Shown: piece by piece, positions 8,537-48,618 of the stretch | Layout of the letters: the number at the start of each line of letters is the position of its first letter | Numbering within the stretch: position 1 is the first letter of the stretch | Assembly: GCF_024223415.1 (NCBI RefSeq) | Contig: NZ_CP100500.1 | Direction: 5' to 3' (one strand) | DNA: 64,000 nucleotides | Origin: Escherichia coli | GTDB taxonomy: Bacteria > Pseudomonadota > Gammaproteobacteria > Enterobacterales > Enterobacteriaceae | Translations under genes and position numbers: made by a program | Notes under the pieces: model-generated | Told to the model about the DNA's origin: nothing | Seen by the model: the letters and a program-made list of their open reading frames with translations, nothing else | The model's database searches: none

Positions 8537-8540
8537 TTAT

Positions 8541-8978
8541 ATGTGTGAATTAATTAATGAAGCATCAAAATATGGGAAAGTCAATGTAAGAAAGATGGAC
8601 ATTGATTTGTGTTGTAAAAAAATAGAGGAAGAAGGGTATTCTGTTTTCGTTGCGTTCTATGATTTTATAAAAAAATATGGCGGTTTATATGGCTTTCATT
8701 CAGCTTACAAAGACACCACTATAAGTGAGGCTTTTTTTATAGATCCAGAAAGGGCCTCTAATCGCATTTTTATAGAAAGAGTCAATGATTATATTGAGAG
8801 AGCTGGTTACAATATGATTCCTGTTGGCGAGTGCAGTAATGGTCATATCACATTATTATATGGGGAAAATAATGTGATATATGGCGGCTTGGATGATTAT
8901 CTTTGGAAGTATGGGGATAATTTATCTTCATCAATTGATATATTGATTAATGGTAAGGAGGCAGTTGAAATTCCGTAA
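8541..8978 (+). CDS. putative immunity protein for the Rhs C-terminal toxin
   Basis: 145 aa from internal ATG (track ORF 8511..8978), starting 5 nt after rhs stop; AT-rich like the toxin tail; assigned by position only. Confidence 0.55.
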   Translation: MCELINEASKYGKVNVRKMDIDLCCKKIEEEGYSVFVAFYDFIKKYGGLYGFHSAYKDTTISEAFFIDPERASNRIFIERVNDYIERAGYNMIPVGECSNGHITLLYGENNVIYGGLDDYLWKYGDNLSSSIDILINGKEAVEIP

Positions 8979-8986
8979 GGCCAACT

Positions 8987-10909: not shown

Positions 10910-10922
10910 TAAGGGCATAGTA

Positions 10923-11456
10923 ATGAATGTTTATTTAATTCGGCATGATGTGGACAACTTCAAGTTTTACTTGCAAGACGAGAGTGACTTTCTTTCAGTT
11001 GCTGCTTTTGATTTTTGTGGAGAGTCTCTATTTAATGGATGGAAACCATACAAAATAGAGCTATTTAAAGGAAAAACTAAAGCTGAGAAATCATTAAACG
11101 GGGATTTTAATTCATCATGTTTTAGTCCAGGATTATTATACGTCGAACATTCTCTCGCAGATGTATTATCTCGTCAGGCAAATGATATTGAGTTATTAAA
11201 AGTAATCACCAGTGATGATCGTGATTTTTATTATGCAAACGTGGTAGGGAAAATACCAGCCTTACATTATAACAACAGACAAGAGCTACAAATTATGAGT
11301 AGAACACAAGAATATAAATTCAATAACTCCATAAATGAAATGTTAATATTTCGTGATAAAACATTACCTTCAAACTATTTTGTTACAGATCGTTTTGTGG
11401 ATATTTTTCAGAATGATTTTCGTGGGGTAATTTTTAAAAAAGTTGGTGAGATATAA
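10923..11456 (+). CDS. putative immunity protein for the orphan Rhs-CT
   Basis: 177 aa, AT-rich, immediately downstream of orphan toxin stop; assigned by position. Confidence 0.5.
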   Translation: MNVYLIRHDVDNFKFYLQDESDFLSVAAFDFCGESLFNGWKPYKIELFKGKTKAEKSLNGDFNSSCFSPGLLYVEHSLADVLSRQANDIELLKVITSDDRDFYYANVVGKIPALHYNNRQELQIMSRTQEYKFNNSINEMLIFRDKTLPSNYFVTDRFVDIFQNDFRGVIFKKVGEI

Positions 11457-11482
11457 CTTAATGCATTGAACATCTAACCCGT

Positions 11483-12015
11483 ACCGCTATGACCGCCACG
11501 GTAACCTGCTGGCGTACACGGACGGTAACGGCGTTGTCTGGACGATGGAATACGGCCCGTTCGATTTGCCGGTCGCGCGAACGGACGGTGAAGGCCACCG
11601 CTGGTGGTACCGCTACGATAAAGACACGCTGCAACTGACAGAAGTCATCAACCCGCAGGGTGAGTCATATCTTTATGTTCTGGATAACTGTGGCCGGGTG
11701 ACGGAAGAGCGTGACTGGGGCGGCGTGGTCTGGCGTTACCGCTATGACGCCGATGGCCTCTGTACCGCCAGGGTCAACGGACTGGAGGAAACCATCCTCT
11801 ACAGCCGGGACGCTGCAGGGCGCCTGGCAGAAGTCATCACGCCGGAAGGGAAAACGCAGTATGCGTATGACAAATCCGGCAGGCTGACGGGTATCTTCAG
11901 CCCGGACGGCATATCACAGCGCACCGGCTATGACGAACGCGGGCGGGTGAATGTCACCACTCAGGGCCGACGGGCAGGGAAAGATCATCAGAAGTTCACT
12001 TTTTGTACTAAATAA
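11483..12015 (+). pseudogene. truncated rhs core fragment
   Basis: ~11483-11975 duplicates main rhs ~6316-6807, then diverges into a short tail before a stop; no toxin domain; abuts the H-repeat element. Confidence 0.7.
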
Positions 12016-13400
12016 TTCGCATTTTATGTTTAAAAATTGAGATATTCCTCATTATCCGAAGCTGTTTTTTATTGCTTATACATGATCAAATACTCCTTAC
12101 ATAATTAAGGAGAACAAAATGGAACTTAAAAAATTGATGGAACATATTTCTATTATCCCCGATTACAGACAAGCCTGGAAAGTGGAACATAAATTATCAG
12201 ATATTCTACTGTGGACTATTTGTGCCGTTATTTCTGGTGCAGAAGGTTGGGAAGATATAGAGGATTTTGGGGAAACACATCTCGATTTTTTGAAGCAATA
12301 TGGTGATTTTGAAAATGGTATTCCTGTTCACGATACCATTGCCAGAGTTGTATCCTGTATCAGTCCTGCAAAATTTCACGAGTGCTTTATTAACTGGATG
12401 CGTGACTGCCATTCTTCAGATGATAAAGACGTCATTGCAATTGATGGAATAACGCTCCGGCACTCTTATGATAAGAGTCGTCGCAGGGGAGCGATTCATG
12501 TCATTAGTGCGTTCTCAACAATGCACAGTCTGGTCCTCGGACAGATCAGGACGGATGAGAAATCTAATGAGATTACAGCTATTCCTGAACTTCTTAACAT
12601 GATGGATATTAAAGGAAAAATCATCACAACTGATGCGATGGGTTGCCAGAAAGATATTGCAGAAAAGATACAAAAACAGGGAGGGGATTATTTATTCGCT
12701 GTAAAGGGAAATCAGGGGCGACTAAATAAAGCCTTTGAGGAAAAATTCCCGCTGAAAGAATTAAATAATCCAGAGCATGACAGTTACGCAATCAGTGAAA
12801 AGAGTCACGGCAGAGAAGAAATCCGTCTTCATATTGTTTACGATGTCCCTGATGAACTTATTGATTTCACGTTTGAATGGAAAGGGCTGAAGAAATTATG
12901 CGTGGCAGTCTCCTTTCGGTCCATAATAGCAGAACAAAAGAAAGAGCCAAAAATGACGGTCAGATATTATATCAGTTCTGCTGATTTAACCGCAGAGAAG
13001 TTCGCCACAGCAATCCGAAACCACTGGCACGTGGAGAATAAGCTGCACTGGCGTCTGGACGTGGTAATGAATGAAGACGACTGCAAAATAAGAAGAGGAA
13101 ATGCAGCAGAATTATTTTCAGGGATACGGCACATTGCTATTAATATTTTGACGAATGATAAGGTATTCAAGGCAGGGTTAAGACGTAAGATGCGAAAAGC
13201 AGCCATGGACAGAAACTATCTGGCGTCAGTCCTTGCGGGGAGCGGGCTTTCGTAATCTTGCCCTGCCTGCTCACCTCCAGGCACTTCCACTACATCATGA
13301 CCTGATCGGTGCCACCACTCCTCTTCACTATGACGTTAACCTCCCCTCCTTGACACCACGCTTTTGTCTACATTCTACGCAAACGGCAACTTTTATAACC
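11976..13400 (+). mobile_element. H-repeat (ISAs1-family) insertion element; boundaries approximate
   Basis: Homology to rhs ends at ~11975; contains the transposase ORF; right end not resolved by eye. Confidence 0.45.
12119..13255 (+). CDS. ISAs1-family transposase (H-repeat-associated protein)
   Basis: 378 aa; classic H-rpt protein sequence ([31 protein letters not shown]...); known association with Rhs elements. Confidence 0.9.
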
Positions 13401-13520: not shown

Positions 13521-15758
13521 GTGGACTGGCTTCTTGATGTTTTTGCTACCTGGCTCTACGGCTTAAAAGTAATCGCGATAACGTTAGCGGTCATCATGTT
13601 CATCAGCGGGCTGGACGATTTTTTTATTGATGTCGTCTACTGGGTACGCCGCATTAAACGCAAGTTGAGTGTTTATCGCCGCTACCCGCGAATGAGTTAC
13701 CGCGAACTGTATAAACCAGATGAAAAACCGTTAGCGATTATGGTTCCGGCGTGGAATGAAACGGGCGTCATCGGCAATATGGCCGAGCTGGCGGCGACCA
13801 CGCTCGACTACGAAAACTATCATATCTTTGTTGGCACCTACCCCAACGACCCGGACACTCAGCGTGATGTTGACGAAGTGTGCGCTCGCTTCCCGAATGT
13901 GCATAAGGTAGTCTGCGCGCGTCCTGGCCCCACCAGCAAAGCCGACTGTCTGAACAACGTGCTGGACGCCATCACCCAGTTTGAGCGTAGCGCCAATTTC
14001 GCATTTGCTGGTTTTATTCTGCATGACGCCGAAGATGTGATTTCACCGATGGAGTTGCGTCTGTTCAACTATCTGGTCGAGCGTAAAGATCTGATTCAGA
14101 TCCCGGTATACCCATTCGAACGCGAATGGACGCACTTCACCAGCATGACTTACATTGATGAGTTTTCAGAACTGCATGGCAAAGATGTTCCGGTGCGTGA
14201 AGCCCTCGCCGGACAAGTACCCAGCGCAGGCGTCGGCACCTGTTTCAGCCGCCGCGCCGTGACCGCTCTGTTAGCTGATGGTGACGGTATTGCTTTCGAC
14301 GTGCAAAGTCTTACTGAAGATTACGACATTGGCTTCCGCCTGAAAGAAAAAGGTATGACGGAAATTTTTGTCCGTTTTCCGGTGGTGGATGAAGCCAAAG
14401 AACGCGAGCAGCGTAAATTTTTACAGCACGCACGGACGTCAAACATGATCTGCGTGCGCGAATATTTCCCCGATACCTTTTCGACTGCGGTTCGACAAAA
14501 ATCCCGCTGGATCATCGGCATTGTTTTCCAGGGCTTTAAAACCCATAAATGGACCTCCAGCCTGACGCTGAACTACTTTCTCTGGCGCGACCGCAAAGGG
14601 GCAATCAGTAACTTTGTCAGCTTCCTCGCGATGCTGGTGATGATCCAGCTTTTGCTGTTGCTGGCGTATGAAAGTTTGTGGCCCGATGCCTGGCATTTCC
14701 TTTCTATTTTTAGCGGCAGCGCATGGTTAATGACCCTGCTGTGGCTAAACTTTGGCTTGATGGTTAACCGCATCGTGCAGCGGGTGATTTTCGTCACTGG
14801 CTACTACGGCCTCACGCAGGGGCTACTATCTGTCCTGCGTCTTTTCTGGGGCAACCTGATTAACTTCATGGCCAACTGGCGCGCGTTAAAACAGGTACTT
14901 CAACACGGCGATCCACGTCGCGTCGCGTGGGATAAAACAACGCATGACTTCCCCAGCGTCACTGGCGATACCCGCTCGTTGCGCCCGTTAGGTCAAATTC
15001 TGCTGGAAAATCAGGTCATCACTGAAGAACAGCTCGATACAGCACTGCGTAATCGCGTCGAAGGTCTACGCCTGGGCGGTTCAATGCTGATGCAGGGGCT
15101 GATTAGCGCCGAGCAGCTGGCACAGGCGCTGGCAGAGCAAAACGGCGTGGCGTGGGAATCCATCGATGCCTGGCAGATCCCGTCCTCGCTGATTGCCGAA
15201 ATGCCGGCCTCCGTGGCGCTGCATTATGCGGTACTGCCGCTGCGTCTGGAAAATGATGAGTTAATTGTCGGCAGTGAAGATGGTATTGACCCGGTTTCGC
15301 TGGCGGCCCTGACGCGTAAAGTCGGACGCAAAGTGCGTTACGTCATTGTTCTGCGGGGACAAATTGTCACGGGGTTACGTCACTGGTATGCACGCCGACG
15401 CGGTCACGATCCGCGGGCAATGTTGTACAATGCGGTTCAGCATCAGTGGCTCACGGAACAGCAGGCCGGTGAAATCTGGCGGCAATATGTGCCGCATCAG
15501 TTCCTGTTCGCCGAAATACTGACCACGCTCGGTCATATTAATCGTTCAGCAATTAACGTGTTGTTATTGCGCCATGAACGCAGTTCTCTGCCGCTCGGCA
15601 AGTTTTTGGTCACCGAAGGCGTTATCAGCCAGGAAACGTTGGATCGCGTCCTGACAATTCAACGCGAATTACAAGTTTCGATGCAATCACTATTACTCAA
15701 AGCAGGTTTAAACACAGAACAGGTTGCGCAACTGGAGTCCGAAAATGAAGGAGAATAA
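13521..15758 (+). CDS. nfrB: glycosyltransferase NfrB (phage N4 adsorption protein B)
   Basis: 745 aa, GTG start; family-2 glycosyltransferase with N-terminal membrane helices; synteny with nfrA. Confidence 0.9.
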   Translation: MDWLLDVFATWLYGLKVIAITLAVIMFISGLDDFFIDVVYWVRRIKRKLSVYRRYPRMSYRELYKPDEKPLAIMVPAWNETGVIGNMAELAATTLDYENYHIFVGTYPNDPDTQRDVDEVCARFPNVHKVVCARPGPTSKADCLNNVLDAITQFERSANFAFAGFILHDAEDVISPMELRLFNYLVERKDLIQIPVYPFEREWTHFTSMTYIDEFSELHGKDVPVREALAGQVPSAGVGTCFSRRAVTALLADGDGIAFDVQSLTEDYDIGFRLKEKGMTEIFVRFPVVDEAKEREQRKFLQHARTSNMICVREYFPDTFSTAVRQKSRWIIGIVFQGFKTHKWTSSLTLNYFLWRDRKGAISNFVSFLAMLVMIQLLLLLAYESLWPDAWHFLSIFSGSAWLMTLLWLNFGLMVNRIVQRVIFVTGYYGLTQGLLSVLRLFWGNLINFMANWRALKQVLQHGDPRRVAWDKTTHDFPSVTGDTRSLRPLGQILLENQVITEEQLDTALRNRVEGLRLGGSMLMQGLISAEQLAQALAEQNGVAWESIDAWQIPSSLIAEMPASVALHYAVLPLRLENDELIVGSEDGIDPVSLAALTRKVGRKVRYVIVLRGQIVTGLRHWYARRRGHDPRAMLYNAVQHQWLTEQQAGEIWRQYVPHQFLFAEILTTLGHINRSAINVLLLRHERSSLPLGKFLVTEGVISQETLDRVLTIQRELQVSMQSLLLKAGLNTEQVAQLESENEGE

Positions 15759-18717
15759 CCTTAATCGCGTCATCGGATGGTCTGGTTTACTGCTGACGTC
15801 TTTATTGAGTACCAGCGCACTCGCAGACAATATCGGCACCAGCGCAGAAGAGCTGGGGCTGAGCGATTATCGCCATTTTGTTATTTATCCCCGTCTCGAT
15901 AAGGCGCTGAAGGCACAGAAAAATAACGACGAAGCAACCGCCATCCGCGAATTTGAATATATACACCAGCAGGTGCCGGATAATATTCCGCTGACTTTAT
16001 ACCTTGCGGAAGCCTATCGCCATTTTGGTCATGATGACCGGGCGCGGCTGTTGCTTGAGGATCAACTGAAACGTCACCCAGGAGATGCCCGACTTGAGCG
16101 CAGTCTGGCGGCTATTCCAGTTGAAGTGAAAAGCGTTACGACAGTTGAAGAACTGCTTGCCCAGCAAAAAGCGTGCGATGCTGCGCCGACCCTGCGTTGT
16201 CGCAGTGAAGTCGGGCAGAATGCCCTGCGGCTGGCACAGTTACCTGTCGCCAGAGCGCAACTGAACGATGCGACGTTTGCTGCATCGCCGGAAGGAAAAA
16301 CGCTGCGAACCGATCTGCTGCAACGGGCAATCTACCTGAAACAATGGTCCCAGGCAGATACGCTATACAATGAAGCACGCCAGCAGAACACATTAAGCGC
16401 GGCAGAACGCCGTCAGTGGTTTGACGTGCTTCTTGCCGGGCAGCTGGACGATCGGATCCTGGCGCTGCAATCACAGGGGATCTTCACTGATCCTCAGTCA
16501 TATATTACTTACGCGACCGCGCTGGCTTATCGTGGCGAAAAAGCACGCCTCCAGCATTATCTCATTGAAAATAAGCCGCTGTTTACCACGGACGCACAAG
16601 AGAAAAGTTGGCTCTATCTGTTATCTAAATACAGCGCCAACCCCGTTCAGGCATTGGCGAATTATACGGTGCAGTTTGCCGATAACCGCCAGTATGTTGT
16701 TGGCGCGACGCTACCGGTGCTGTTAAAAGAAGGTCAGTACGACGCAGCGCAAAAACTGCTCGCCACCCTCCCCGCCAATGAAATGCTTGAGGAGCGTTAT
16801 GCTGTCAGCGTGGCGACCCGTAACAAGGCTGAAGCTCTGCGTCTGGCACGCTTGCTGTATCAGCAAGAACCGGCAAATCTTACCCGCCTGGATCAACTGA
16901 CCTGGCAACTGATGCAGAACGAGCAGTCACGCGAAGCTGCCGATTTATTGCTGCAACGCTATCCTTTCCAGGGCGATGCGCGTGTCAGCCAGACTTTAAT
17001 GGCGCGACTGGCGTCTCTTCTGGAAAGTCATCCTTACCTGGCAACTCCAGCGAAGGTGGCGATTTTATCGAAACCCTTACCGCTGGCGGAGCAACGTCAG
17101 TGGCAAAGTCAGTTGCCGGGTATTGCAGATAATTGCCCGGCAATAGTTCGCTTGCTGGGCGATATGTCGCCTTCCTACGATGCTGCCGCCTGGAACCGTC
17201 TGGCAAAGTGTTATCGGGATACGCTACCCGGTGTGGCGTTGTATGCATGGCTTCAGGCCGAACAACGACAACCGAACGCCTGGCAACATCGTGCGGTAGC
17301 CTATCAGGCGTATCAGGTTGAGGACTACGCCACCGCACTGGCGGCCTGGCAGAAAATCAGTCTTCACGACATGAGCAATGAGGATCTGCTTGCTGCTGCC
17401 AATACCGCCCAGGCGGCAGGAAATGGTGCGGCTCGCGATCGCTGGTTACAACAGGCAGAACAACGTGGACTGGGAAACAATGCCCTCTACTGGTGGCTGC
17501 ATGCGCAACGTTACATTCCTGGTCAGCCGGAACTCGCACTGAACGATCTCACGCGCTCAATCAATATTGCGCCTTCTGCCAACGCTTACGTTGCGCGGGC
17601 GACAATTTATCGCCAACGTCATAATGTCCCGGCCGCGGTGAGTGATTTGCGCGCCGCGCTGGAACTGGAACCGAATAATAGCAACACCCAGGCAGCGCTT
17701 GGTTACGCCTTGTGGGATAGCGGTGATATCGCACAGTCGCGGGAAATGCTCGAACAGGCGCATAAAGGGCTACCGGACGATCCGGCACTGATCCGACAAC
17801 TGGCCTATGTGAACCAGCGTCTGGATGACATGCCTGCGACGCAGCACTACGCCCGGCTGGTGATTGATGACATTGATAATCAGGCGCTGATAACCCCACT
17901 CACCCCAGAGCAAAATCAGCAACGCTTCAATTTCCGCCGTCTGCATGAGGAGGTCGGTCGCCGCTGGACGTTCAGTTTCGATTCTTCCATCGGCTTGCGT
18001 TCCGGCGCAATGAGTACCGCTAACAATAATGTCGGCGGCGCAGCGCCAGGGAAAAGCTATCGTAGCTACGGACAACTGGAAGCCGAGTACCGCATCGGAC
18101 GCAATATGCTGCTGGAAGGCGACCTGCTCTCAGTCTATAGCCGCGTCTTTGCCGATACCGGAGAAAACGGGGTGATGATGCCGGTGAAAAATCCGATGTC
18201 CGGCACCGGTCTGCGCTGGAAGCCGCTGCGCGATCAGATCTTTTTCCTCGCCGTCGAACAGCAGTTGCCGCTGAACGGGCAAAATGGCGCATCCGATACA
18301 ATGCTGCGCGCCAGCGCCTCATTCTTTAATGGCGGCAAATACAGCGACGAATGGCACCCGAACGGTTCAGGCTGGTTTGCCCAAAACCTGTACCTCGATG
18401 CGGCGCAATATATCCGCCAGGATATTCAGGCGTGGACGGCAGATTATCGCGTCAGCTGGCATCAGAAGGTAGCTAACGGACAGACTATTGAGCCTTACGC
18501 TCACGTTCAGGACAACGGCTATCGTGATAAAGGCACTCAGGGCGCGCAGCTTGGCGGTGTCGGGGTCCGCTGGAATATTTGGACCGGCGAGACGCACTAC
18601 GACGCCTGGCCGCACAAAGTCAGTCTCGGCGTCGAGTATCAACATACCTTTAAGGCGATTAATCAACGTAACGGAGAGCGCAACAACGCGTTTCTCACCA
18701 TTGGAGTGCACTGGTAA
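15745..18717 (+). CDS. nfrA: outer membrane TPR protein NfrA
   Basis: 990 aa from ATG at 15745 (MKENNLNRVIGWSGLLL, signal peptide); track ORF starts 15724; overlaps nfrB end. Confidence 0.9.
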   Translation: MKENNLNRVIGWSGLLLTSLLSTSALADNIGTSAEELGLSDYRHFVIYPRLDKALKAQKNNDEATAIREFEYIHQQVPDNIPLTLYLAEAYRHFGHDDRARLLLEDQLKRHPGDARLERSLAAIPVEVKSVTTVEELLAQQKACDAAPTLRCRSEVGQNALRLAQLPVARAQLNDATFAASPEGKTLRTDLLQRAIYLKQWSQADTLYNEARQQNTLSAAERRQWFDVLLAGQLDDRILALQSQGIFTDPQSYITYATALAYRGEKARLQHYLIENKPLFTTDAQEKSWLYLLSKYSANPVQALANYTVQFADNRQYVVGATLPVLLKEGQYDAAQKLLATLPANEMLEERYAVSVATRNKAEALRLARLLYQQEPANLTRLDQLTWQLMQNEQSREAADLLLQRYPFQGDARVSQTLMARLASLLESHPYLATPAKVAILSKPLPLAEQRQWQSQLPGIADNCPAIVRLLGDMSPSYDAAAWNRLAKCYRDTLPGVALYAWLQAEQRQPNAWQHRAVAYQAYQVEDYATALAAWQKISLHDMSNEDLLAAANTAQAAGNGAARDRWLQQAEQRGLGNNALYWWLHAQRYIPGQPELALNDLTRSINIAPSANAYVARATIYRQRHNVPAAVSDLRAALELEPNNSNTQAALGYALWDSGDIAQSREMLEQAHKGLPDDPALIRQLAYVNQRLDDMPATQHYARLVIDDIDNQALITPLTPEQNQQRFNFRRLHEEVGRRWTFSFDSSIGLRSGAMSTANNNVGGAAPGKSYRSYGQLEAEYRIGRNMLLEGDLLSVYSRVFADTGENGVMMPVKNPMSGTGLRWKPLRDQIFFLAVEQQLPLNGQNGASDTMLRASASFFNGGKYSDEWHPNGSGWFAQNLYLDAAQYIRQDIQAWTADYRVSWHQKVANGQTIEPYAHVQDNGYRDKGTQGAQLGGVGVRWNIWTGETHYDAWPHKVSLGVEYQHTFKAINQRNGERNNAFLTIGVHW

Positions 18718-19608
18718 ATGCGTAAGTTCATTTTCGTATTGCTGACACTGCTTTTGGTCAGCCCTTTTTCCTTTGCGATGAAAGGTATTATCTGGCAACC
18801 ACAAAACCGAGATAGTCAGGTTACCGATACCCAGTGGCAGGGGCTGATGAGTCAGTTACGTTTGCAAGGCTTCGATACCCTGGTTTTGCAATGGACCCGT
18901 TACGGCGATGCATTTACCCAGCCAGAACAGCGCACGTTATTGTTTAAGCGGGCCGCAGCTGCGCAACAGGCTGGTCTGAAGCTGATTGTCGGGCTGAACG
19001 CCGATCCGGAATTTTTTATGCACCAGAAACAGTCGTCCGCAGCGCTGGAAAGCTATCTTAATCGCCTGCTGGCTGCCGATCTCCAGCAAGCCAGATTATG
19101 GAGCGCCGTACCTGGCGTAACGCCGGATGGCTGGTACATCAGCGCGGAAATTGACGACCTGAACTGGCGCAGCGAAGCCGCCCGTCAGCCTTTGCTAACA
19201 TGGTTAAACAACGCGCAGCGGCTGATTAGCGATGTTTCAGCAAAACCGGTTTATATCAGTAGTTTTTTCGCCGGAAACATGTCGCCAGATGGCTATCGCC
19301 AACTGCTGGAACACGTTAAAGCAACCGGCGTTAATGTCTGGGTACAGGATGGCAGCGGCGTGGATAAACTTACCGCTGAACAGCGTGAACGTTATCTACA
19401 GGCCAGCGCCGATTGCCAAAGCTCCGCCCCAGCAAGCGGCATTGTTTATGAACTGTTTGTCGCCGGCAAAGGCAAAACCTTTACAGCGAAACCGAAACCG
19501 GACGCAGAAATTGCCTCGCTGTTAGCGAAACGTTCCTCTTGCGGTAAAGACACTCTCTATTTCTCTCTGCGCTATTTGCCCGTCGCGCACGGCATTCTCG
19601 AGTATTAA
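18718..19608 (+). CDS. ybcH: YbcH-family periplasmic protein
   Basis: 296 aa with signal peptide; start abuts nfrA stop; K-12 synteny. Confidence 0.85.
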   Translation: MRKFIFVLLTLLLVSPFSFAMKGIIWQPQNRDSQVTDTQWQGLMSQLRLQGFDTLVLQWTRYGDAFTQPEQRTLLFKRAAAAQQAGLKLIVGLNADPEFFMHQKQSSAALESYLNRLLAADLQQARLWSAVPGVTPDGWYISAEIDDLNWRSEAARQPLLTWLNNAQRLISDVSAKPVYISSFFAGNMSPDGYRQLLEHVKATGVNVWVQDGSGVDKLTAEQRERYLQASADCQSSAPASGIVYELFVAGKGKTFTAKPKPDAEIASLLAKRSSCGKDTLYFSLRYLPVAHGILEY

Positions 19609-19790
19609 ATCTCCTCCAGGTAAGTCGGGTACGACCTGGCTTACCTCTTTCGCTCTCGTCAGAATTCCATCAAGATTAATTGCTAAAAAGCGTGCTAAAG
19701 AAAGAAGATCGTTATCGGCGAACGGGCCGATCACTCATGCAGGAAGCATAGATCCTTTGAGCGGAGTTTCTGATATCTGAGGAGTGCGAA

Positions 19791-20552
19791 ATGCAATTGA
19801 GCAGCAGTGAACCTTGCGTGGTGATCCTGACCGAAAAAGAGGTAGAGGTAAGCGTCAATAACCATGCTACGTTTACCCTTCCGAAAAACTACCTGGCCGC
19901 CTTCGCGTGCAACAATAACGTCATTGAACTCTCAACGTTAAATCACGTATTAATCACCCACATCAACCGTAACATCATCAACGATTATCTGTTGTTTTTA
20001 AATAAGAACTTAACCTGTGTAAAGCCCTGGTCGCGGCTGGCTACCCCGGTTATCGCTTGTCATAGCCGTACACCGGAAGTGTTCCGGCTAGCCGCCAACC
20101 ACAGCAAGCAGCAACCCAGCAAACCCTGCGAAGCGGAGTTGACGCGCGCATTGCTTTTTACCGTATTGTCTAACTTTCTTGAGCAATCGCGGTTTATTGC
20201 CCTACTGATGTATATCTTACGCAGCAGCGTCCGCGACAGCGTCTGCCGCATTATTCAAAGCGATATTCAGCATTACTGGAATCTGCGAATTGTCGCCAGT
20301 TCGCTATGTTTAAGCCCCAGCCTGCTCAAAAAGAAATTAAAAAACGAAAATACCAGCTATAGCCAGATTGTCACAGAGTGTCGTATGCGTTACGCCGTAC
20401 AGATGTTATTGATGGATAACAAAAATATCACTCAGGTGGCGCAATTATGTGGCTATAGCAGCACGTCGTACTTTATCTCTGTTTTTAAGGCGTTTTACGG
20501 CCTGACACCGTTGAATTATCTCGCCAAACAGCGACAAAAAGTGATGTGGTGA
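19791..20552 (+). CDS. envY: AraC-family porin regulator EnvY
   Basis: 253 aa; C-terminal AraC HTH; position between ybcH and ompT. Confidence 0.85.
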   Translation: MQLSSSEPCVVILTEKEVEVSVNNHATFTLPKNYLAAFACNNNVIELSTLNHVLITHINRNIINDYLLFLNKNLTCVKPWSRLATPVIACHSRTPEVFRLAANHSKQQPSKPCEAELTRALLFTVLSNFLEQSRFIALLMYILRSSVRDSVCRIIQSDIQHYWNLRIVASSLCLSPSLLKKKLKNENTSYSQIVTECRMRYAVQMLLMDNKNITQVAQLCGYSSTSYFISVFKAFYGLTPLNYLAKQRQKVMW

Positions 20553-20597
20553 AGGGCAAAGCGGAAACGGATAAGACGGGCATAAATGAAGAAGAAA

Positions 20598-20645
20598 TGG
20601 CGCGCCCTGCAGGATTCGAACCTGCGGCCCACGACTTAGAAGTTC
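20598..20645 (-). other. partial tRNA-Arg (argU) 3' end copy, prophage attachment-site core
   Basis: Minus strand reads CTTCTAAGTCGTGGGCCGCAGGTTCGAATCCTGCAGGGCGCGCCA, i.e. anticodon loop to CCA end of argU, with no 5' half. Confidence 0.8.
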
Positions 20646-21065
20646 CTAGAACGACATTTTAAGTCAACAACTTACCGCGCCATCTCTGCGCTCACACGTC
20701 CCACTACCTCAAAACATGTAAAGCCTTGCAAGCCATTGTGAGGCCTTATGTGTCTCAGTTTTGTCCCTCTTTTTTGTACCAAAAAACATAGCAATTGAGG
20801 ATAAACCTCATGCTATTTTCGCTTATATGCCTCTAAAGGCATGGCACTTAAATAGATAAAAGCACCACAAAAGCATAAAAAAACCACACAGTAAAACCGC
20901 AATATGAAACAATAACAGATAATTAAACCAAAAACAGATAGCGCATTGTGATAATCATTCAATACTAAACAAAATATAAACAGTGGAGCAATATGTAATT
21001 GACTCATTAAGTTAGATATAAAAAATACATATTCAATCATTAAAACGATTGAATGGAGAACTTTT

Positions 21066-22019
21066 ATGCGGGCGAAACTTCTGGGAATAGTCCTGACAAC
21101 CCCTATTGCGATCAGCTCTTTTGCTTCTACCGAGACTTTATCGTTTACTCCTGACAACATAAATGCGGACATTAGTCTTGGAACTCTGAGCGGAAAAACA
21201 AAAGAGCGTGTTTATCTAGCCGAAGAAGGAGGCCGAAAAGTCAGTCAACTCGACTGGAAATTCAATAACGCTGCAATTATTAAAGGTGCAATTAATTGGG
21301 ATTTGATGCCCCAGATATCTATCGGGGCTGCTGGATGGACAACTCTCGGCAGCCGAGGTGGCAATATGGTCGATCAGGACTGGATGGATTCCAGTAACCC
21401 CGGAACCTGGACGGATGAAAGTAGACACCCTGATACACAACTCAATTATGCCAACGAATTTGATCTGAATATCAAAGGCTGGCTCCTCAACGAACCCAAT
21501 TACCGCCTGGGACTCATGGCTGGATATCAGGAAAGCCGTTATAGCTTTACAGCCAGAGGTGGTTCCTATATCTACAGTTCTGAGGAGGGATTCAGAGATG
21601 ATATCGGCTCCTTCCCGAATGGAGAAAGAGCAATCGGCTACAAACAACGTTTTAAAATGCCCTACATTGGCTTGACTGGAAGTTATCGTTATGAAGATTT
21701 TGAACTCGGTGGCACATTTAAATACAGCGGCTGGGTGGAATCATCTGATAACGATGAACACTATGACCCGGGAAAAAGAATCACTTATCGCAGTAAGGTC
21801 AAAGACCAAAATTACTATTCTGTTGCAGTCAATGCAGGTTATTACGTCACACCTAACGCAAAAGTTTATGTTGAAGGCGCATGGAATCGGGTTACGAATA
21901 AAAAAGGTAATACTTCACTTTATGATCACAATAATAACACTTCAGACTACAGCAAAAATGGAGCAGGTATAGAAAACTATAACTTCATCACTACTGCTGG
22001 TCTTAAGTACACATTTTAA
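21066..22019 (+). CDS. ompT: outer membrane protease OmpT (omptin)
   Basis: 317 aa; signal peptide and sequence recognisable as OmpT throughout. Confidence 0.95.
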   Translation: MRAKLLGIVLTTPIAISSFASTETLSFTPDNINADISLGTLSGKTKERVYLAEEGGRKVSQLDWKFNNAAIIKGAINWDLMPQISIGAAGWTTLGSRGGNMVDQDWMDSSNPGTWTDESRHPDTQLNYANEFDLNIKGWLLNEPNYRLGLMAGYQESRYSFTARGGSYIYSSEEGFRDDIGSFPNGERAIGYKQRFKMPYIGLTGSYRYEDFELGGTFKYSGWVESSDNDEHYDPGKRITYRSKVKDQNYYSVAVNAGYYVTPNAKVYVEGAWNRVTNKKGNTSLYDHNNNTSDYSKNGAGIENYNFITTAGLKYTF

Positions 22020-22268
22020 GAACGCCAACTAAAATTTCCCCGAGGTGAAAATCGCCCCGGGGAATAACTAGCCATTTCAATGTAACAATTAACCCTTAAA
22101 ATAAACCCAGAAGGTTATTAACTAAATCACATAAAAAACCATCAATTATAGTATGTATAAAATAGGCGACAGCAACCCAATTACAAATTAATGGTTCCAG
22201 AATATCACATCAAAAAAAACGCTGTATAATATTATAATTAACATGTAGACAACTTGTAATAAACATTA

Positions 22269-23018
22269 TCAGTCAATTGTTTTGTTTATTCCATCTGTGA
22301 CGCCGATTATTTTCTCAAAATAATGAGATGGCGTGACACCATAATAATCTTTAAATGCACATATGAAATATGAAGTACTGTTATAGCCACATTTCTGGGC
22401 TACGACATTGATAGAATAAGAGTTTGAAGTTATGAGTTTTTTTGCATACCTCATCCTAGTATCTCTCAATATTTCAGTAAATGACGTTCCTTCATCCCTT
22501 AATCTTTTTTTTATTAAACTTTCACTCGTATAAATCAATTCCGCAATATCTTTTAAATGCCATTGCCGCTCAATATTAAAACTGATTATTCCAGTAATTT
22601 TACAGGTAAATGTATTTATATTTGTTAGTATAAATGAATTTACACTTTCGCGTTTTTTGAACATGGCAAGTAAGGATATACATAGTCTTTCTTTTAACCA
22701 AAGGGAGTATGAGTCTGCTATTTTAATCCCTTCAAACAGAGAAAAAACAAGCGATAATGGAGGTTCCTCTTCAGCAATATAGCCATTCTTATCAAGAGTA
22801 AATTTGCCAGGCAGCTCATTATTCACGTCGATAAAAAAGGATAAACATGTTTTCTTATCTATATCAACAATTCTTAGTTTAGAGGGGCATACTGGTAACT
22901 CCCTTCTAATTTTATCGCTTACAATAAACAATGAATTTTTTTTGAACGAGATAACTCTCCTGTTTATAATTAAATCAAATGATTGACAGATGAAAACTAC
23001 GGAGCAAACATAATCCAT
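22269..23018 (-). CDS. appY: AraC-family regulator AppY
   Basis: 249 aa; AT-rich; C-terminal AraC HTH; K-12 synteny next to ompT. Confidence 0.9.
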
Positions 23019-23577
23019 CTTGCACCTATCATAAAATTAAAACAAGTTGATAGCAGTCAAATAACAACCAATTAAATACACAATCATAATCAGGATGATG
23101 TGCATTTATATTTTTATACACAAAATTATAGTTTGCAAATTTTAATAAATTTCATTTAAGATTAAATTATTATATGTATATTGTTTTTTATTCTAACGTA
23201 TTTCAAAGTTACATTTTTCAACGCTTACTATACTTTTTATTAACATAAACTCACTACAACGCACCTGAAACCTCTTGCTATATATATGTCAACCGTTTGA
23301 ATTTAAAATAAAAAGAGTATCATTTTTACTTGCATTTCTTATCAAGTCACATTCAACAACAGTAAAAAAACATTATTAGAACCATTCAATTAACAAAAAA
23401 CCAACATCCAGCTTGCTTAATTTTTCTTTATTAAACGATATTGAAAATCAATTGATAAAATACATCTAAACAACCTTTTGGGGCGCAAAAGCATAACATC
23501 AAACAAACAAATAACACACCGAAAAAACTCACAATTAATAACCTATGATATACATACTGTTTATTATGGTTGAATAA

Positions 23578-23824
23578 GCCACTCGATATCTGGTGCTACG
23601 GAAGTGTCCACACGGTTTAGCAGCACCCGATACTTTTTTCAGGCTTCCAGCAACGATCTTTCTTCCTCCGTTGCGATTTCCAGATCTACAGCATCCTGCA
23701 GTGGCGCAATATACTCACTGAATTCCTGGATGTAGAACTGTGTGGTGACGGTCTTCCAGCCATTCGGCTCCTGCTGTATTGAAGCATACCAGGCTATTTC
23801 AATATCGCTATGCTGCGGCAGCAT
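23578..23824 (-). pseudogene. tail fibre assembly gene remnant (tfaX-like)
   Basis: 61-aa ORF 23639..23824; 23578-23720 is a ~143-bp near-duplicate of the 3' part of tfa (24628-24769) with a 1-nt indel creating a stop. Confidence 0.7.
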
Positions 23825-23880
23825 TTAACCCCTTGTAATTCATTGCCATAATTGATTTAATTCACAAATAAAACTATAAC

Positions 23881-24549
23881 ATGGTGAAATTAATGAAAAA
23901 AAACACAGATGATGGGGCTAAAATTTACACACCACTTACCCTAAAGCTTTATGACTGGTGGGTTTTGGGAGTATCAAATCGGCTTGCATGGGGATCTCCT
24001 ACAAAGGAACACCTTCTTCCACACTTTCTGGAACATTTAGGTAACAACCATCTGGATATTGGTGTTGGAACTGGGTTTTACCTTACTCACGTACCTGAGA
24101 GTAGTCTGATATCTTTAATGGATTTGAACGAAGCTAGCCTGAACGCGGCATCTACAAGGGCTGGGGAATCAAAAATTAAACATAAAATTAACCATGATGT
24201 TTTTGAACCTTGTCCCGCGGCGTTACATGGTCAATTTGATTCCATTTCCATGTTTTACCTTCTTCACTGCCTGCCTGGAAATATATCTACAAAAAGCTGT
24301 GTAATACGCAATGCGGCGCAGGCCTTAACTGACGATGGAACTCTATACGGAGCCACAATTCTTGGCGATGGAGTTGTGCACAATAGCTTCGGTCAAAAAC
24401 TGATGCGCATTTACAATCAGAAAGGCATCTTTTCAAACACAAAAGATTCCGAAGAAGGCTTAACACATATACTCTCAGAGCATTTCGAGAATGTTAAAAC
24501 CAAGGTTCAAGGTACTGTAGTAATGTTTTCCGCTTCAGGGAAAAAATAG
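23881..24549 (+). CDS. SAM-dependent methyltransferase (YbcY-like)
   Basis: 222 aa; motif I DIGVGTGFY; K-12 DLP12 has ybcY at the equivalent position. Confidence 0.7.
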   Translation: MVKLMKKNTDDGAKIYTPLTLKLYDWWVLGVSNRLAWGSPTKEHLLPHFLEHLGNNHLDIGVGTGFYLTHVPESSLISLMDLNEASLNAASTRAGESKIKHKINHDVFEPCPAALHGQFDSISMFYLLHCLPGNISTKSCVIRNAAQALTDDGTLYGATILGDGVVHNSFGQKLMRIYNQKGIFSNTKDSEEGLTHILSEHFENVKTKVQGTVVMFSASGKK

Positions 24550-24603
24550 CATCCAACCGCAGCACGTTCTTGCTTAAGACGTGCTGCGGCATAATCCCAA
24601 TGA

Positions 24604-25188
24604 TTACTCCCTGACAGGGTTCGTAGGCCACTCAATATCAGGTGCAGTTGATGTATCAACACGGTTCAGCAACACCCGATACTTTTTCCAGGCTTCCAGC
24701 AATGAGGTTTCTTCCTCCGTTGCGATTTCCAGATCTACAGCATCCTGAAGTGGCGCAATATGCTCACTGGCTACCTGCATCAGGCTGTTTTTTGTTTCTT
24801 CCGCCTCCCGGATCCGGAACAGTTTTTCTGCTTCTGCATCTTTCACCCAGGCTGTGCCGTTCCACTTCTGAAACTCCCCTTCCGGCGATAACCAGGTAAC
24901 ATTTTCCGGTAACGGACCGAGTTCAGAAATAAATAACTCGTCCCCTGACGCTACGTCATAAACCGTTTTACCCCGATGGTCTTCAACGAGATGCCACGAT
25001 GCCTCATCACTGTTGAAAACAGCCACAAAGCCAGCAGGAATATCTGGTGGTGCAATATCGGTACTGTTTGCTGGCAGACCTGTATGAGGCGGAATATATG
25101 CGTCACCTTCACCAATAAATTTATTAGTTCCGGCCAGCAGATTATAAATTTTTATGGTCCGTGCTTGTTCACTCATTCTGAATGCCAT
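24604..25188 (-). CDS. tail fibre assembly protein (Tfa)
   Basis: 194 aa; immediately downstream of side tail fibre gene; conserved Tfa C-terminus ([16 protein letters not shown]). Confidence 0.85.
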
Positions 25189-27944
25189 TATGCAAGCCTC
25201 ACAATATAGTTAAATGCGATGTTTTTGACGGTGTTTTCCGCGTTACCAGCAGCGTTAACGGTGATGGTGTGTCCATGTGAGCCAATCGCAACGGAGTGCG
25301 TATGAGCACCAATACCGACAGTATGTGCGTGTGCACCTGCAGATGCTGCGGTGCCGGACAGTGAGTGGCTATGATTACCATCTGTACTGGTATTAGCTAA
25401 CGCCCCCGTAGACATACCTACTGAGCCTTGTACACCCCAAGTATTTTGACCTGAGCTTGTATAACCATATTGATAAGTATCTTTAAAAACACTGGGGTTA
25501 AATCGACGGCCATCTCTATGGCTGTGATTACCAGCTGCATTCGTGCTGCCACTTAAACTATGGGTATGCGCACCAGTGTTATTCGTAGATTTAGTGCCGT
25601 AATCAAACGACGATGTGGTTTTCGTCCCCAAATCCGTACTGGATGCGCTGGCGCTGTGGGTGTGCGATTTAATGCCGTCCTGTTCCTGAGACAATACGGC
25701 ACGACCACTGGCGGGCTTGCCCTTAATCGTCCAGCCACGCATATCAGGGATCACGCCTGACGGATAAGCCGCTGCAAGTTTCGGGTATGCAGATTTGTCA
25801 AAAGCCTGCCCCTGCATCAGGGCATAGCCAGACGGAACGGTATCTGATGGCCACGGGATTGGTGCGCCAGGCGGATAAAACTGCTCTGATGGCGTATAGA
25901 GTGAATAAACTGTACCGTCCGTTAACCCTTCCGGCTTATTAGCAGAATATGCTGGTGACGTATGAATCGTCACGCTGGCATTACTGGTATAATCCCATTG
26001 AATATTTACACCAGTCGCATAATTTCCGATTGCAACGTAAATATCGTAAGTATCACCAGATGTATTAACCCAGGCAAAATTTGTAAACCCTGTCAATGTG
26101 CGCTGCCATAAAGCACCAGTAATCCCCTTCGGATTACCATTACCTGCACGTAAAACAAGTTCAGATATACCTGCCTGTTGAGGTGACCCCACGTTAAATC
26201 CAGCGCCACCAATCAACGTAATTGAAACAACAGAACTCGCCTGTGGCATGGTTACCGTTGCTAATTTGAACCAACCAGCACCACCGCTGAATGACATTGT
26301 TGTTGAGTTAAGCGTACCAATATCTTTCGGCGTCAGTGTTATATCCGCTGAAAGCGCCTTACCATTCACCTTACGGGCAGAAGGTACCCGACCATTCGCA
26401 TTGTCATTAGCTGCTTTCACTGCTTTCGGTGTCGCAGCAAGCGTTTCAGATGTGCTGTTGGTTGCACTACTGAGCTGGACAATTCCTTTTTGTGCTGTCG
26501 TAGCGTCCTGTGCGGTGTATTTCCCGTTAGCCAGGTCATACGCGGCCTTAACGGCTTTTGGCGTTGCCGCCTGTGACTCGGAAGTGCTGTTAGTCGCACT
26601 GCTGAGCTGAACTATCCCTTTCTGTCCTGTCGTTGCATCCTGTGCGGTGTATTTCCCGTTAGCCAGGTCATACGCGGCCTTAACGGCTTTTGGCGTTGCC
26701 GCCTGTGACTCGGAAGTGCTGTTGGTCGCACTGCTGAGCTGTACTATCCCCTTTTTCGTCGTGCTCGCATCCTCAAGCGCCACGGCGGATGCAATATCCT
26801 CTGCCCGTTTTGCTGCTGTCTCGGCGCGCGTTGCCGCGGATTCCGCCGTACTTTTGCTCTGTGCTGCCGCTGCCGCACTGCCAGCAGCCTCTGTCGCCTT
26901 CGTGGATGCCGTCGTGGCGCTGCCCCTCGCTGCTGACGCCTGTCTGGTCGCCTCATCTTTTGAAGCAGACGCAGATGATGCCGATGACGCCGCCGAACTG
27001 GCGGACGATGCGGCAGCCGTTTTTGAGGATTCTGCGCTGGTTTCCGACGCTTTCGCGTTCGTTTCGGATGTCTTCGCTGCGGAAGCAGACCTCGCTGCTG
27101 CGCTGGCCTGTTCAGTGGCTTCGCCAGCCTTCGTTGTGGCTGTTGAAGCGGATGATGCGGCGCTTTCTGCCGATTTTCCGGCGGCGGTGGCACTGACTGC
27201 TGCCTCCTCTGCCTTAATGGACGCCTCACGGGCCGATGATGCAGCTGCTGTCTCAGAGTCTGCCGCAGCTGAGGCGCTCTGTTCCGCTGCCGTTTCAGAA
27301 GACTTAGCATTCGTCTCGGACGTTTTCGCCGCAGCGGCACTGGTAGCTGCCGCGCTTTTTGAGGACTCTGCAGCAGCAGCACTTTTCGATGCTTCACTGG
27401 CCTTTGTTGATGCCGTTCCTGCGCTGGAAGATGCTGACTGAGCCGACGACGCGGCCTGTCCGGCTGACGTGCTGGCTGCGCGTGCTGAGCCTGCAGCATC
27501 AGTCGTATGGGTTGCCGCCTCACGGGCTGATGTGCTGGCATCGCTGGCTGACTTCTTCGCGGCTGCCGTGTTCTGTGCCACCGCGGACGCGTTACGCGCC
27601 ACCTCTTCCACCATCAGTTCAAAACGGCGCAGTGCCTCAGGACGGGCATCATCCTCCGTCATGGCACCGAGAAAATCATTCAGCGTACCGGGTCGGGAAT
27701 CTTCATACACGGTGATGGTCCCGGCATGTGACGGCGGGAACCCCTCCACCAACAGAATAACGCTGTACTGCCCGTACTCAACGTCCATGCTGTAACGCCC
27801 GGCTTCATCCGGATTTTCTGAGGCCAGCGTGTTCACCACCACCGTGGTGCTGTTACGTTTTGCTTTCAGCTGGATTGTGCAGTTCTGTACCGGTTTTCCT
27901 GTGCCGTCTTTCAGTACACCTGAAATCTTTACTGCCATATTCAC
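25188..27944 (-). CDS. side tail fibre protein (Stf-like)
   Basis: 918 aa; lambda Stf-like N-terminus, long Ala/Ser/Thr-rich region, three 44-aa tail-fibre repeats ([41 protein letters not shown]), His-rich C-terminal tip. Confidence 0.9.
26377..26772 (-). repeat. three tandem ~132-bp coding repeats inside the tail fibre gene
   Basis: Units beginning ~26377, 26509 and 26641 are near-identical at DNA level. Confidence 0.85.
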
Positions 27945-28002: not shown

Positions 28003-28602
28003 TCAGAATTTATAACCGACACCCACGATGAAACCGTCAGTGCGCCAGTCACCACTGCCGGAGCCTTCATAAGCAATATCAATGGCCACGGATTCGGTCG
28101 GGTTAAACTGCACGCCAGCCCCCCACGCCAGAGACGTGTTGCTGTGGCGACCGTCATCACTTCCGGTCAGCACATCGTGCTTTTTCCCCTTGTTGTCAGT
28201 TACGCGAAGATAATCCCCGGAGAAAGTCGACACACGGCTGTAAGCTACACCCGCCATCGCATACGCGCTGAACCATTCATTCACGCGCACAGACGGCCCC
28301 GCCATTACGCTGAACCAGCGGTTACGAACGGAATCTTCATGCCAGCGGGTATCGCTGTAACGGGTCAGCTGGCGATTCTTGTCTCCTGCATAGCTGAATG
28401 ACGTCACCAGCCCCAGTGTGTCCGTAAACTCATAACGGTATTTCACGTTAATCCCGTTCAGATCATCACTGCCGGGGACGTTCGTCGAGGCATGAAGATA
28501 CCCCGCGCTCAGCGTGGACTGATGTTCAGACGCCCATGCAGGCGCACCGGATACGGCCAGACAAATGGCTGCGGACAAAATTGCTGCACAAACTTTACGC
28601 AT
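28003..28602 (-). CDS. lom: Lom/Ail-family outer membrane protein
   Basis: 199 aa; signal peptide, beta-barrel ending in F; directly downstream of J as in lambda. Confidence 0.9.
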   Translation of the reverse strand: MRKVCAAILSAAICLAVSGAPAWASEHQSTLSAGYLHASTNVPGSDDLNGINVKYRYEFTDTLGLVTSFSYAGDKNRQLTRYSDTRWHEDSVRNRWFSVMAGPSVRVNEWFSAYAMAGVAYSRVSTFSGDYLRVTDNKGKKHDVLTGSDDGRHSNTSLAWGAGVQFNPTESVAIDIAYEGSGSGDWRTDGFIVGVGYKF

Positions 28603-28672: not shown

Positions 28673-31600
28673 TCAACGAATACTGATGCCGGAAGCGGCT
28701 TTTTTGGTCACAATCACCGTACAGTCGGTGATATTGCCTGCCCCCTGATTGCCTTTCTGGAAAATCTTAAACTCCAGAGTGACGCTTCCCCTGCCACTCG
28801 GCATATCAATAACTGCACTGTAACTACCGGGAATGGCCCCTTTAGTTTCTCTGGATGCGATTAATACGCCGTTTTTGCGAACTTCAAAACCATAACCCGT
28901 GTATCGCGTGCCTCCTGGGTTATTTCCGCTCCCCGGATCGTCATACGCTATACCGTTAAAAATAATGGGCGGAATAATAATCTGGCGGTCAAAGTTATGA
29001 TCATCGCTGATGGTGACTGTAACCGTACCGTTTGGTGTTTCCGTGTTACCCCACGTACCGACTTTTTTCGGGAAGGCTTTTGATACAGCTTTAACGAAAT
29101 CTCCTCTGACCTGGGTCGCCTCCAGCATGCCCTTAATCGTACAGTTCTGGTTAATCGTGACATTGTTGAGCGTTCCTGAGTTCGCATTCACACTGCCACT
29201 GATATCCGCATTTTTCGCCGTCAGTCTCCCGTCTGATGTCAGGGAAAATGCCGGAGGATTACCGCCGCTGGTAATGGTGGGGGCCGTCAGGCGTTTCAGG
29301 AACACTTCATTCATGAATATCTGATCGCCCTGACCAACAAACATCGGCTTTGTGTTGCCATTCGCAGGATTAATCATCGCAATCCTGTCTGCTGCCAGCA
29401 GCACCTGACTCTGCATGCCGTCAGGGGTGTTCTCAATACCGGCACCGATACCCGCAATATAAAGGCGTCCGTCCTGCATCTGCTGCAGCTTCACTGCCCA
29501 CATGCTGTTCAGGTTATTATTTGTATCAACCTGAACCTTCTGTATCTGCTGGATCGCTGCACTCTGGTCTTCCAGTTTCTTATTGACGGTCTGTGTTATT
29601 TCATTGCTGACATCCGTTATGGACGTCCTGATTTCAGTCAGGTCAGGCGCAAGCTGACCGTTATCAATCTGCGTCCACAGCTCCTGAGCCAGATGGGTTT
29701 TCCCTATCTCGCCTTTGAAAAAATCCAGGTAACCTTCCGCATCATCGCTCGCCCGACCGACGGCCTCCACGAATGCCGATTTGCCAACGGTGTTCACACT
29801 GCGGATATAAAAGTAATAATCATGGCCCGGTTTGATATTGATACTGGCGGCTATCCAGTACAGCCCCGTGCCAAGGTAGCGGGCTGTGGTTTCAACCTGC
29901 CTGATATCGGTAATCCGCGTTTCCGAGAACCAGAACTCAAACTGTACCGTCGGATCATAAACCGCAAGATGCGGCGTGGCAGTTATCTGAAAATAGCCCG
30001 GCGTCAGCTCAATCCGCGACGGCGCTGCCGGGGCGGCAATCCGGAACGATACCGACGCCGGATCGCCCTGCTGTCCCCGGGCATTTACCGCCCGGACCGT
30101 CAGCGTGTAACGCCCCAGCGCCAGTTGCCTGAAGCGGTAAGTGGTTTCCGTCGTCCGGGCCGTGCTGACCAGCCGCTCACGGCCGTCATCCGCTGCCACG
30201 GTCAGGCGAAGCAGGAAGCTCACGCCCTTCACCACCTTCGGCGTGTCCCAGCGGGCCAGCACCTGATACTCCCCGCTGTCTGCGGTGACTTCTGCGGTCA
30301 GGTGCTGCACCGCTGGCGGCGTGACACCATTTACCGTGCCGCTCTGGTCGCCGTCAAAGTGCGCCCCGTTATCCACGATGGCCTCTTTTTCCGGTACATG
30401 CTGCACGGCGGTGATGGCATACGTGCCGTCGTCGTTCTCACGGATACTCACACAGCGGAACAGGCGCTGGCGCAGCGTCGGCAGCTTCAGCCCCCACACG
30501 CTGTATCCGGCAACGCCGTCAGGAACACGGCTCACTTTCACCTTCACGCCGTCGGTGACGGACTGAACCTCCACGCTGACCGGATTGCCACTTCCGTCAA
30601 CCAGGCTTATCAGCGTGGTACCGGAGGATGGCAGCGTGATTTCACGGTCGAGCGTCAGCGTCCGGGTCTGGCTGTTCACCGCCAGCACACGCCCGCCGGT
30701 GCTGATCCCCGCATAGTCATCATCACAGATTTCAATGACATCGCCCGGTACATGGCGAAGCCCTTCTGCGCCCACGCTGAAGTCCACGGTCTGCGTCTCC
30801 AGCAGCTCCGTTTTAATCAGCCACAGCCCGGCGCGGTGTGCCTGCCCCCGGCTGGTACAGCCAAAGGCATCCATCTTCGTGACGTTACGACCGTAACGGA
30901 CAATGGCCTGCGTATCCTCCACAAGCTCTGTCGCCGTCTCCTGGCCGTTATTCGGGTCAATCCAGTTCACCTCAACGGCATTATGACGGTCCTTCAGGGC
31001 GCTGAAGCTGTAGCGGAACGGCGCGCCATCATCCGGCATCACCACATTACTGCGGTTATAGGTCCACACCTTATCCGATGGCCGGTCCTGCACGAACGTC
31101 AGCGTCTGCCCGTTCCATACCGGCATACAGCGCATCGCCGAGCAGAAATCACTGAGCACATCCCACGCCTTGCGCTGCGTGGTCAGGTACGCATTACAGG
31201 TGATACGCGGTTCCGTGCCACCAAAGCCATCCGGCACCGACTGGTCGCAATTCTGGCCGATGACATACAGCGCCCATTTATCCACATCCGCCGCACCAAG
31301 ACGTTTCCCCATGCCGTAGCGCGGATGGGTCAGCATATCCCACAGACACCAGGCCATGTTGTTGCTGTATGCCGGTTGTAACGTTCCGTCCCAGATACCG
31401 CTGTATTGTCGCGTCTGCGGGTTATAATTCGACGGCACCTGCAGAATACGCCCGCGAAGATGATAATTACGGCTCACCTGCTGGCTGCCGAACTGCTCCG
31501 AATCCACCTGCACACCGACCAGTGCCGTGTTCGGGTAGCACTGTTTCACATCGATGATTTCGGTGTATGACGACCAGAGCGTTTTGTTCTGCAGCTGGTC

Positions 31601-32170
31601 TGTGGTGCTGTCCGGCGTCATCCTGCGCATCCGGATACTGAACGGGCGCGGCGGCAGGTTACCCACCACCACCGGGGCCAGATACTGCGAGGTGGTTTTG
31701 CCCTTAATGGTGATGTCTTTTTCCGTTAACCAGCGACCGTTACGCTGTATCTGAACCAGCAGGCGGACTTCCGACGGATTCCGGTCCCCCTTTGAGGTGG
31801 TTTCCACCAGTGCCTGCACACCGAAGGTCAGGCGCAGACGGTCGATGTTTGCCGACGTGATGGTCCGGGTAATCGGCGTGTCGTACTTCACTTCCGTACC
31901 CAGCACCGTCTCGGAGCCGGAGGATTCAAATCCCTCCGGCGGTGTCTGCTCCTGCTCACCTGCCCGGAAAACCACCGTGACACCGGAGATATTGGTATTC
32001 CCCTCACTGTCCAGCACCGGCGTACTGTTCAGCAGCACACTTTTTAATCCGTCCACCGGACCTTCAACCGGCCCTTCACTGATGGCGTCTATCACGCTCA
32101 GCATCTGGGATGATTTCAGGTTGTCCTTCGCTTCGCGCGGGGTATGCCCCTTACTGCTGCCTTTACCCAT
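28673..32170 (-). CDS. J: tail tip host-specificity protein J
   Basis: 1165 aa; N-terminus [20 protein letters not shown] as in lambda J. Confidence 0.95.
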
Positions 32171-33519: not shown

Positions 33520-33523
33520 GGGA

Positions 33524-48617: not shown

Positions 48618-48618
48618 T

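Follow-up and report, generated by a model that had tools for sequence, protein, structure and literature searches.

The short tRNA fragment between envY and ompT in the window (the whole 64,000-nucleotide stretch of Escherichia coli DNA analysed here) is almost certainly the attR junction of a lambdoid, mEp460/Kati-like prophage in argU, the tRNA-Arg(UCU) gene that serves as the DLP12 site, as judged from sequence comparisons. This 45-base fragment is real, had been correctly read in the preliminary description, and is ordinary, being already annotated in E. coli K-12.

Using as reference the complete argU of strain Z1323HEC0475 (77 nt, anticodon TCT at position 35), we found an exact copy of its nucleotides 33–77, from the anticodon loop to CCA, on the minus strand of the window at 20598–20642, consistently with the earlier reading of a partial tRNA-Arg of about 45 nt. 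The plus strand over this interval reads TGGCGCGCCCTGCAGGATTCGAACCTGCGGCCCACGACTTAGAAG, the reverse complement of which is identical to argU over its 3′ 45 nt. When the 45-nt match (argU query CTTCTAAG...GCGCGCCA) was searched for as a pattern with up to three mismatches, the 64-kb window had one occurrence and 100 shuffles of it had none, while blastn-short with the full 77-nt argU aligned positions 33–77 at E = 4e-21 and returned no second argU fragment longer than 13 nt; above that length, the window holds neither an internal att site nor a degenerate second argU copy, which would be a sign of tandem elements. Identity with the full argU begins at the first base of the anticodon loop and goes past CCA by 2 nt, and the resulting 47-bp core is identical at 47/47 positions to the copy within the full argU. 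The span first given for the fragment, 20598–20645, was right at its start but ran 3 nt too far at its end, into phage-arm bases of which two out of three match. Its position between envY and ompT was also confirmed (see the table), and the exact left boundary of the prophage in the window is thereby set at 20596/20643.

Features of the window, with coordinates, strand and basis of assignment
Feature	Coordinates	Strand	Basis or remark
cusS-like histidine kinase, 3′ end	14–712
vgrG	1306–3207
PAAR-Rhs protein, 1606 aa	3716–8536
Orphan Rhs C-terminal fragment with AHH nuclease domain	9167–10909
ISAs1-type transposase	12119–13255
nfrB	13521–15758
nfrA	15724–18717
ybcH	18718–19608
envY, AraC-family regulator	19791–20552	+	Pfam HTH_AraC; chromosomal flank outside the prophage
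att core	20596–20642	-	47 bp = argU nt 33–77 + 2 nt downstream; distal direct repeat, attR in K-12 orientation
attR phage arm (P arm) and ompT upstream region	20643–21065	.	~99% or better to Kati attP and K-12 ompT-envY intergenic region
ompT, omptin outer-membrane protease	21066–22019	+	Pfam Omptin 5e-130; phage cargo, b-region position
appY, AraC-family regulator	22269–23018	-	Pfam HTH_18/AraC; annotated appY in relatives; present in Kati
ybcY-like SAM-dependent methyltransferase	23881–24549	+	Pfam Methyltransf_12; intact; pseudogene in K-12
Tail fibre assembly (tfa)	24604–25188	-	PHROGs (module range 1e-100 down to 0)
Side tail fibre	25188–27944	-	PHROGs (module range 1e-100 down to 0)
Lom	28003–28602	-	PHROGs (module range 1e-100 down to 0)
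J central tail fibre	28673–32170	-	PHROGs (module range 1e-100 down to 0)
Tail and head module, including tail tip genes	32231–47088	-	PHROGs
Tape measure	34561–37656	-	PHROGs
Major tail	38383–39201	-	PHROGs
ClpP-like protease/capsid fusion	40803–43022	-	PHROGs
Portal	42775–44355	-	PHROGs
Large terminase	44492–46594	-	PHROGs
Small terminase	46594–47088	-	PHROGs
Lysis, cargo and early region	47100–64000	.	Pfam, relatives' annotations
Lysis genes	about 48153–50440
AraC-type regulator, cargo	50540–51280
YbgA/DUF1722 protein, cargo	51623–52582
Lipocalin, cargo	52775–53299		strand opposite to neighbouring cargo
Q antiterminator	53455–53847
cI-like S24 repressor	59708–60334

To place the fragment among the att sites, we aligned four sequences: attB of ATCC 8739, attP of phage Kati, attL at the Z1323HEC0475 argU-intD junction, and the junction of the window. 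All four share the 47-bp core, and the comparison of att cores proposed in the preliminary description therefore gave the same 47 bp in attB, attP, attL and attR. In the window, the ompT-side arm is the arm of Kati attP and the envY-side arm is that of ATCC 8739 attB, while attL of Z1323HEC0475 consists of the bacterial 5′ half of argU followed by the integrase-side arm of Kati. The proposed footprint of integration at argU was thus found in its full form, i.e. the Kati P arm, the 47-bp core and the ATCC 8739 B′ arm in succession.

Unoccupied sites were searched for with a composite query (200 nt upstream of argU, argU, and the reverse-complemented sequence left of 20597). This empty site was present in one continuous piece, with envY and tRNA-Arg annotated under the match, in 2522 of 5426 complete E. 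coli genomes; in ATCC 8739, for example, the gene order is fimZ-argU-envY-ybcH-nfrA, with argU adjoining envY. Since argU lies beside envY in these one-piece sites, the argU-envY interval in the lineage of the window is an insertion. The junction of the window type was found in 1591 of the same 5426 genomes, none of which carries an identical prophage (best matches 97–98%, mosaic). The fragment therefore combines an exact tRNA 3′ copy, an exchange of attB and attP arms, and unoccupied sites in other strains. The probability is negligible that phage integration has nothing to do with it and that it is a tRNA pseudogene arisen by chance or by decay: only its being a partial tRNA speaks for this, whereas the identity is 45/45 and ends exactly where identity with the phage arm starts, and the arm exchange seen against attB and attP refutes it.

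The fragment does not behave as a tRNA gene. ARAGORN found no tRNA gene in the window, and the Rfam tRNA model scored 24.8 bits over 20609–20692 (E = 0.007), below its gathering score of 29, in an alignment that lacks the acceptor stem and contains a 29-nt insertion; a cloverleaf at or above curated threshold, as expected of a functional tRNA, was thus found by neither method. The fold of the fragment with the phage arm was no better than that of shuffled sequence (z = -1.15, with 25 of 200 shuffles at least as stable). These results bear on the idea that the fragment and about 39 nt of adjacent phage arm form an expressed tRNA-like gene, which would draw on the sub-threshold Rfam match, on the ability of GGCGCG in the arm to pair with CGCGCC at the 3′ end, and on the record of phage Kati (PP925833.1), in which the attP core and arm equivalent to window 20598–20681 are annotated as an 84-nt 'tRNA-Pro' (5936–6019). 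Because the window equivalent fails in ARAGORN, stays below threshold in Rfam and folds like shuffles, this Kati 'tRNA-Pro' is probably an annotation artefact; a tRNA-like gene at this place is highly improbable and was rejected on the same three results.

Integration at argU follows the mechanism of tRNA-3′-targeting tyrosine-integrase elements (P22, P4-type), in which a phage copy of the tRNA 3′ segment restores the gene and a partial copy stays at the other end; we see no difference in principle from this standard mechanism. The phage attP carries the 3′ part of argU as a copy of 47 bp, and a tyrosine integrase recombines it with the identical stretch of the chromosomal argU. At the integrase end this restores the tRNA gene, with its 5′ 32 nt from the bacterium and its 3′ 45 nt from the phage, and leaves a promoterless, non-functional 3′ fragment at the far end, beside envY; all DNA rightwards from 20643, including ompT, appY and the methyltransferase gene, is of phage origin. 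In tRNA-targeting tyrosine integrases in general, strand exchange takes place close to that end of the core which lies in the anticodon loop; this would explain why identity runs from the anticodon-loop end to the 3′ end of the gene; here too, the crossover probably falls within the anticodon-loop end. The fragment would do nothing as a tRNA, its only likely role being that of substrate for Int/Xis-mediated excision, for which the element is presumably competent.

On the chromosomal side, the window also holds a type VI secretion cargo island (vgrG/PAAR-Rhs) between the 3′ end of the histidine-kinase gene and nfrB (14–13255).

On the phage side, several lines of evidence agree with the earlier placement of ompT and appY inside the prophage. 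Both genes are missing from the 2522 genomes in which argU abuts envY, sequenced phages carry both of them beside int-attP, and the K-12 annotation also has both within DLP12. Moreover, the segment that holds them is of low GC content (36.6% over 20643–24600, against 52.7% in the chromosomal flank), and its position is that of the b region of lambda, between the tail fibre genes and attP. The neighbouring methyltransferase gene is flanked by a direct repeat of ~143 bp (~88% identity; 23578–23720 and 24627–24769), one copy of which corresponds to a tfaX-like remnant, the other to tfa in its 3′ part; as these flanking repeats are tfa-derived, they suggest that the methyltransferase gene was captured by recombination within tfa.

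Among phages, Kati (46,065 bp) and PhiR68_2 (PV340576.1) have the order int-attP (47-bp core)-ompT-appY-methyltransferase-tfa-stf. In Kati, the integrase (4757–5920) and the 47-bp core (5934–5980) are followed by ompT, appY, the methyltransferase, tfa, stf and Lom. Its identity with the window is 99.5% over 20596–24589, with the match starting exactly at the core, and 94–99.5% over the early region and the J/tail-fibre genes. Kati differs, however, in having another head and tail-shaft module and a DNA invertase beside tfa; of the 43.5 kb compared (window 20501–64000), no more than 23 kb align. In phages ev243 and 2G7b, and in several PhiR phages, ompT is present too, but its neighbour there is not the same. 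We found no literature on the ompT-carrying phages ev243 and 2G7b, and a literature search on ompT, temperate phage and argU gave nothing relevant. Strain Z1323HEC0475 (NZ_CP148326.1, 1–8000) shows a tandem, partly decayed DLP12-type locus in the order ybcH, ompT, methyltransferase, tfa fragment, integrase fragment, core (3659–3705), second ompT and alpha/beta hydrolase; envY is not annotated there, and folD and argU lack the sfm/fimZ genes between them.

The closest annotated counterpart of the junction is that of K-12. In the MG1655 RefSeq record (NC_000913.3), the 'cryptic prophage DLP12' feature (564755..586056) is bounded by two 47-bp copies, one at argU, where position 564755 corresponds to argU nt 33, and the other at 586057–586103, between ompT and envY. 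A 47-bp attR of DLP12 is described in a passage of Ramisetty & Sudhakari 2019 (PMC6379469), which cites Lindsey, Mullin & Walker 1989. Given the K-12 DLP12 annotation and the presence of the junction in so many E. coli genomes, the attR of the window is a re-discovery of an annotated feature; the site, the 47-bp core, the cargo and the intact phage relatives are all in public annotation or literature already, and represent no new biology.

The window and K-12 DLP12 share the 47-bp core, its position between ompT and envY, and the phage arm. Their 531-nt ompT-envY intergenic regions differ at 5 positions, and window 18699–25042 is collinear with K-12 581659–588000 at 99.2% identity (6.3 kb including attR). 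Beyond this segment, the prophage matches K-12 DLP12 only in short patches of 86–90%. In contrast to the K-12 element, which is reduced to 21 kb, interrupted by IS3 and IS5 and devoid of head and tail genes, the element of the window has a complete late region as well as other early and lysis modules. In K-12, the terminase fragment aaaD directly abuts tfaD, the breakpoint corresponding to window 25042, and there is no equivalent of the window from 25043 to ~47000. ORF and family scans of 20643–64000 revealed no IS element. The element thus has the site and the right-end sequence of cryptic DLP12, without its loss of head and tail genes or its disruption by IS elements.

The late region, from terminase through tail fibre, is made up entirely of uninterrupted ORFs with strong PHROG matches. 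The full structural module that had been described is present, unlike in K-12, from terminase to tail fibre, at 97% identity to the viable phage mEp460. Calling it 'lambda-like' holds in a broad sense but not for the head, whose ClpP-like protease/capsid fusion marks it as being of the mEp460 type and not lambda's own. Over window 24600–47100, phage mEp460_ev081 covers 96% at 97.4% identity, while the viable lambdoids mEp460 (NC_019716.1) and Ayreon cover 87–89% at 97% identity. In contrast to the window, none of the records of these three phages was identified as a carrier of the argU core or of the ompT-appY cargo; of the three, Ayreon alone matched in the cargo search, over 107 nt at the tfa end of the query. 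A single Rfam match in the window exceeded its gathering score, namely that to IS009 (minus strand, 24647–24845; 229.5 bits against 117). The match is wholly contained in the tail fibre assembly gene, and what this 'sRNA' family describes thus appears to be a stretch of prophage coding sequence.

An alternative is a two-layer locus, in which attR, ompT, appY and ybcY would be an old, fixed DLP12 remnant to which the complete structural and early modules were added later from another lambdoid phage, by homologous recombination or tandem insertion; within this alternative, the fragment would mark the end of the remnant and not that of one currently mobile phage genome. The near-identity to K-12 confined to 18699–25042 would fit, as would the mosaic nature of lambdoid modules, illustrated by Kati, which has its cargo, tail-fibre and early regions in common with the window but a different head and tail shaft, and the existence of real tandem DLP12-type remnants in Z1323HEC0475, with int′-core-ompT inside the locus. 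However, the window has a single argU fragment and no internal att copy, and the 46-kb genome of Kati has the same cargo beside its integrase and attP, and the cargo segment therefore travels within a packaged phage. The prophage length of about 45 kb expected from relatives also suits lambdoid packaging, and even with a mosaic origin the fragment would still be the attR of the present composite element. We consider this alternative unlikely. A layered origin for the mosaic itself, with an old DLP12 right end and the remainder replaced by recombination, is plausible.

For the preferred reading of a single argU-integrated prophage, the other end of the element can be approached through relatives. 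The region from 47100 to 64000 also has replication and early genes, and yfdQ/R/S/T-like early-left genes run off the window end. The lysis genes on one side and the Q antiterminator on the other enclose the AraC-type, YbgA and lipocalin cargo, in a position where K-12 DLP12 has the porin gene nmpC. Window 61103–64000 matches Kati 1503–4399 at 97.1% identity, and the Kati integrase and core follow 358 nt and 1535 nt further on, respectively; in Z1323HEC0475 the order is yfdQ-yfdR-yfdS-yfdT-intD-tRNA-Arg. An exact match to the last 60 nt of the window was present in 44 IMG/VR contigs, none of them (0/44) identical to the window over 15 kb. Among the 42 informative ones, 28 have the same intD-type integrase sequence next, while 14 diverge to other sequence. 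Three contigs that were long enough have a full argU 1537 nt downstream, and a fourth long contig, the metagenome-derived viral contig IMGVR_UViG_3300028969_000096, has an int-core-ompT attP arrangement. In this fourth contig, the core differs at one position (TGGTGCGCC) and stands between the integrase and the ompT arm, which is an attP or tandem configuration and is consistent with a circular or replicating ompT-carrying phage in nature. This attP-configured contig, together with the phage genomes, shows that the excision reaction occurs in relatives.

These relatives strongly imply, short of proof, that int and an intact argU lie beyond the right edge, as the preliminary description had it, ~0.36–1.6 kb past position 64000. 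As 14 contigs go to other sequence, the early-left module (yfdQ-T) is mosaic, which leaves the placement of int and argU strong rather than proven, and the left end of the element may be rearranged or integrase-less. Provided that this end is as in the relatives, we infer an element of ~45 kb, a normal size for a lambdoid genome.

The comparisons also confirm ompT and appY as phage cargo and not core genes, which helps their annotation and the reading of ompT as a mobile trait. It is possible, at a tentative level only, that the element in this strain is a fully inducible phage that moves ompT and appY between strains by lysogenic conversion at argU. If so, a protease used as a virulence marker of ExPEC (ompT) and a global anaerobic/acid-phosphatase regulator (appY) would both move between strains at this tRNA gene, and the 'chromosomal' ompT of K-12 would be a stranded copy.
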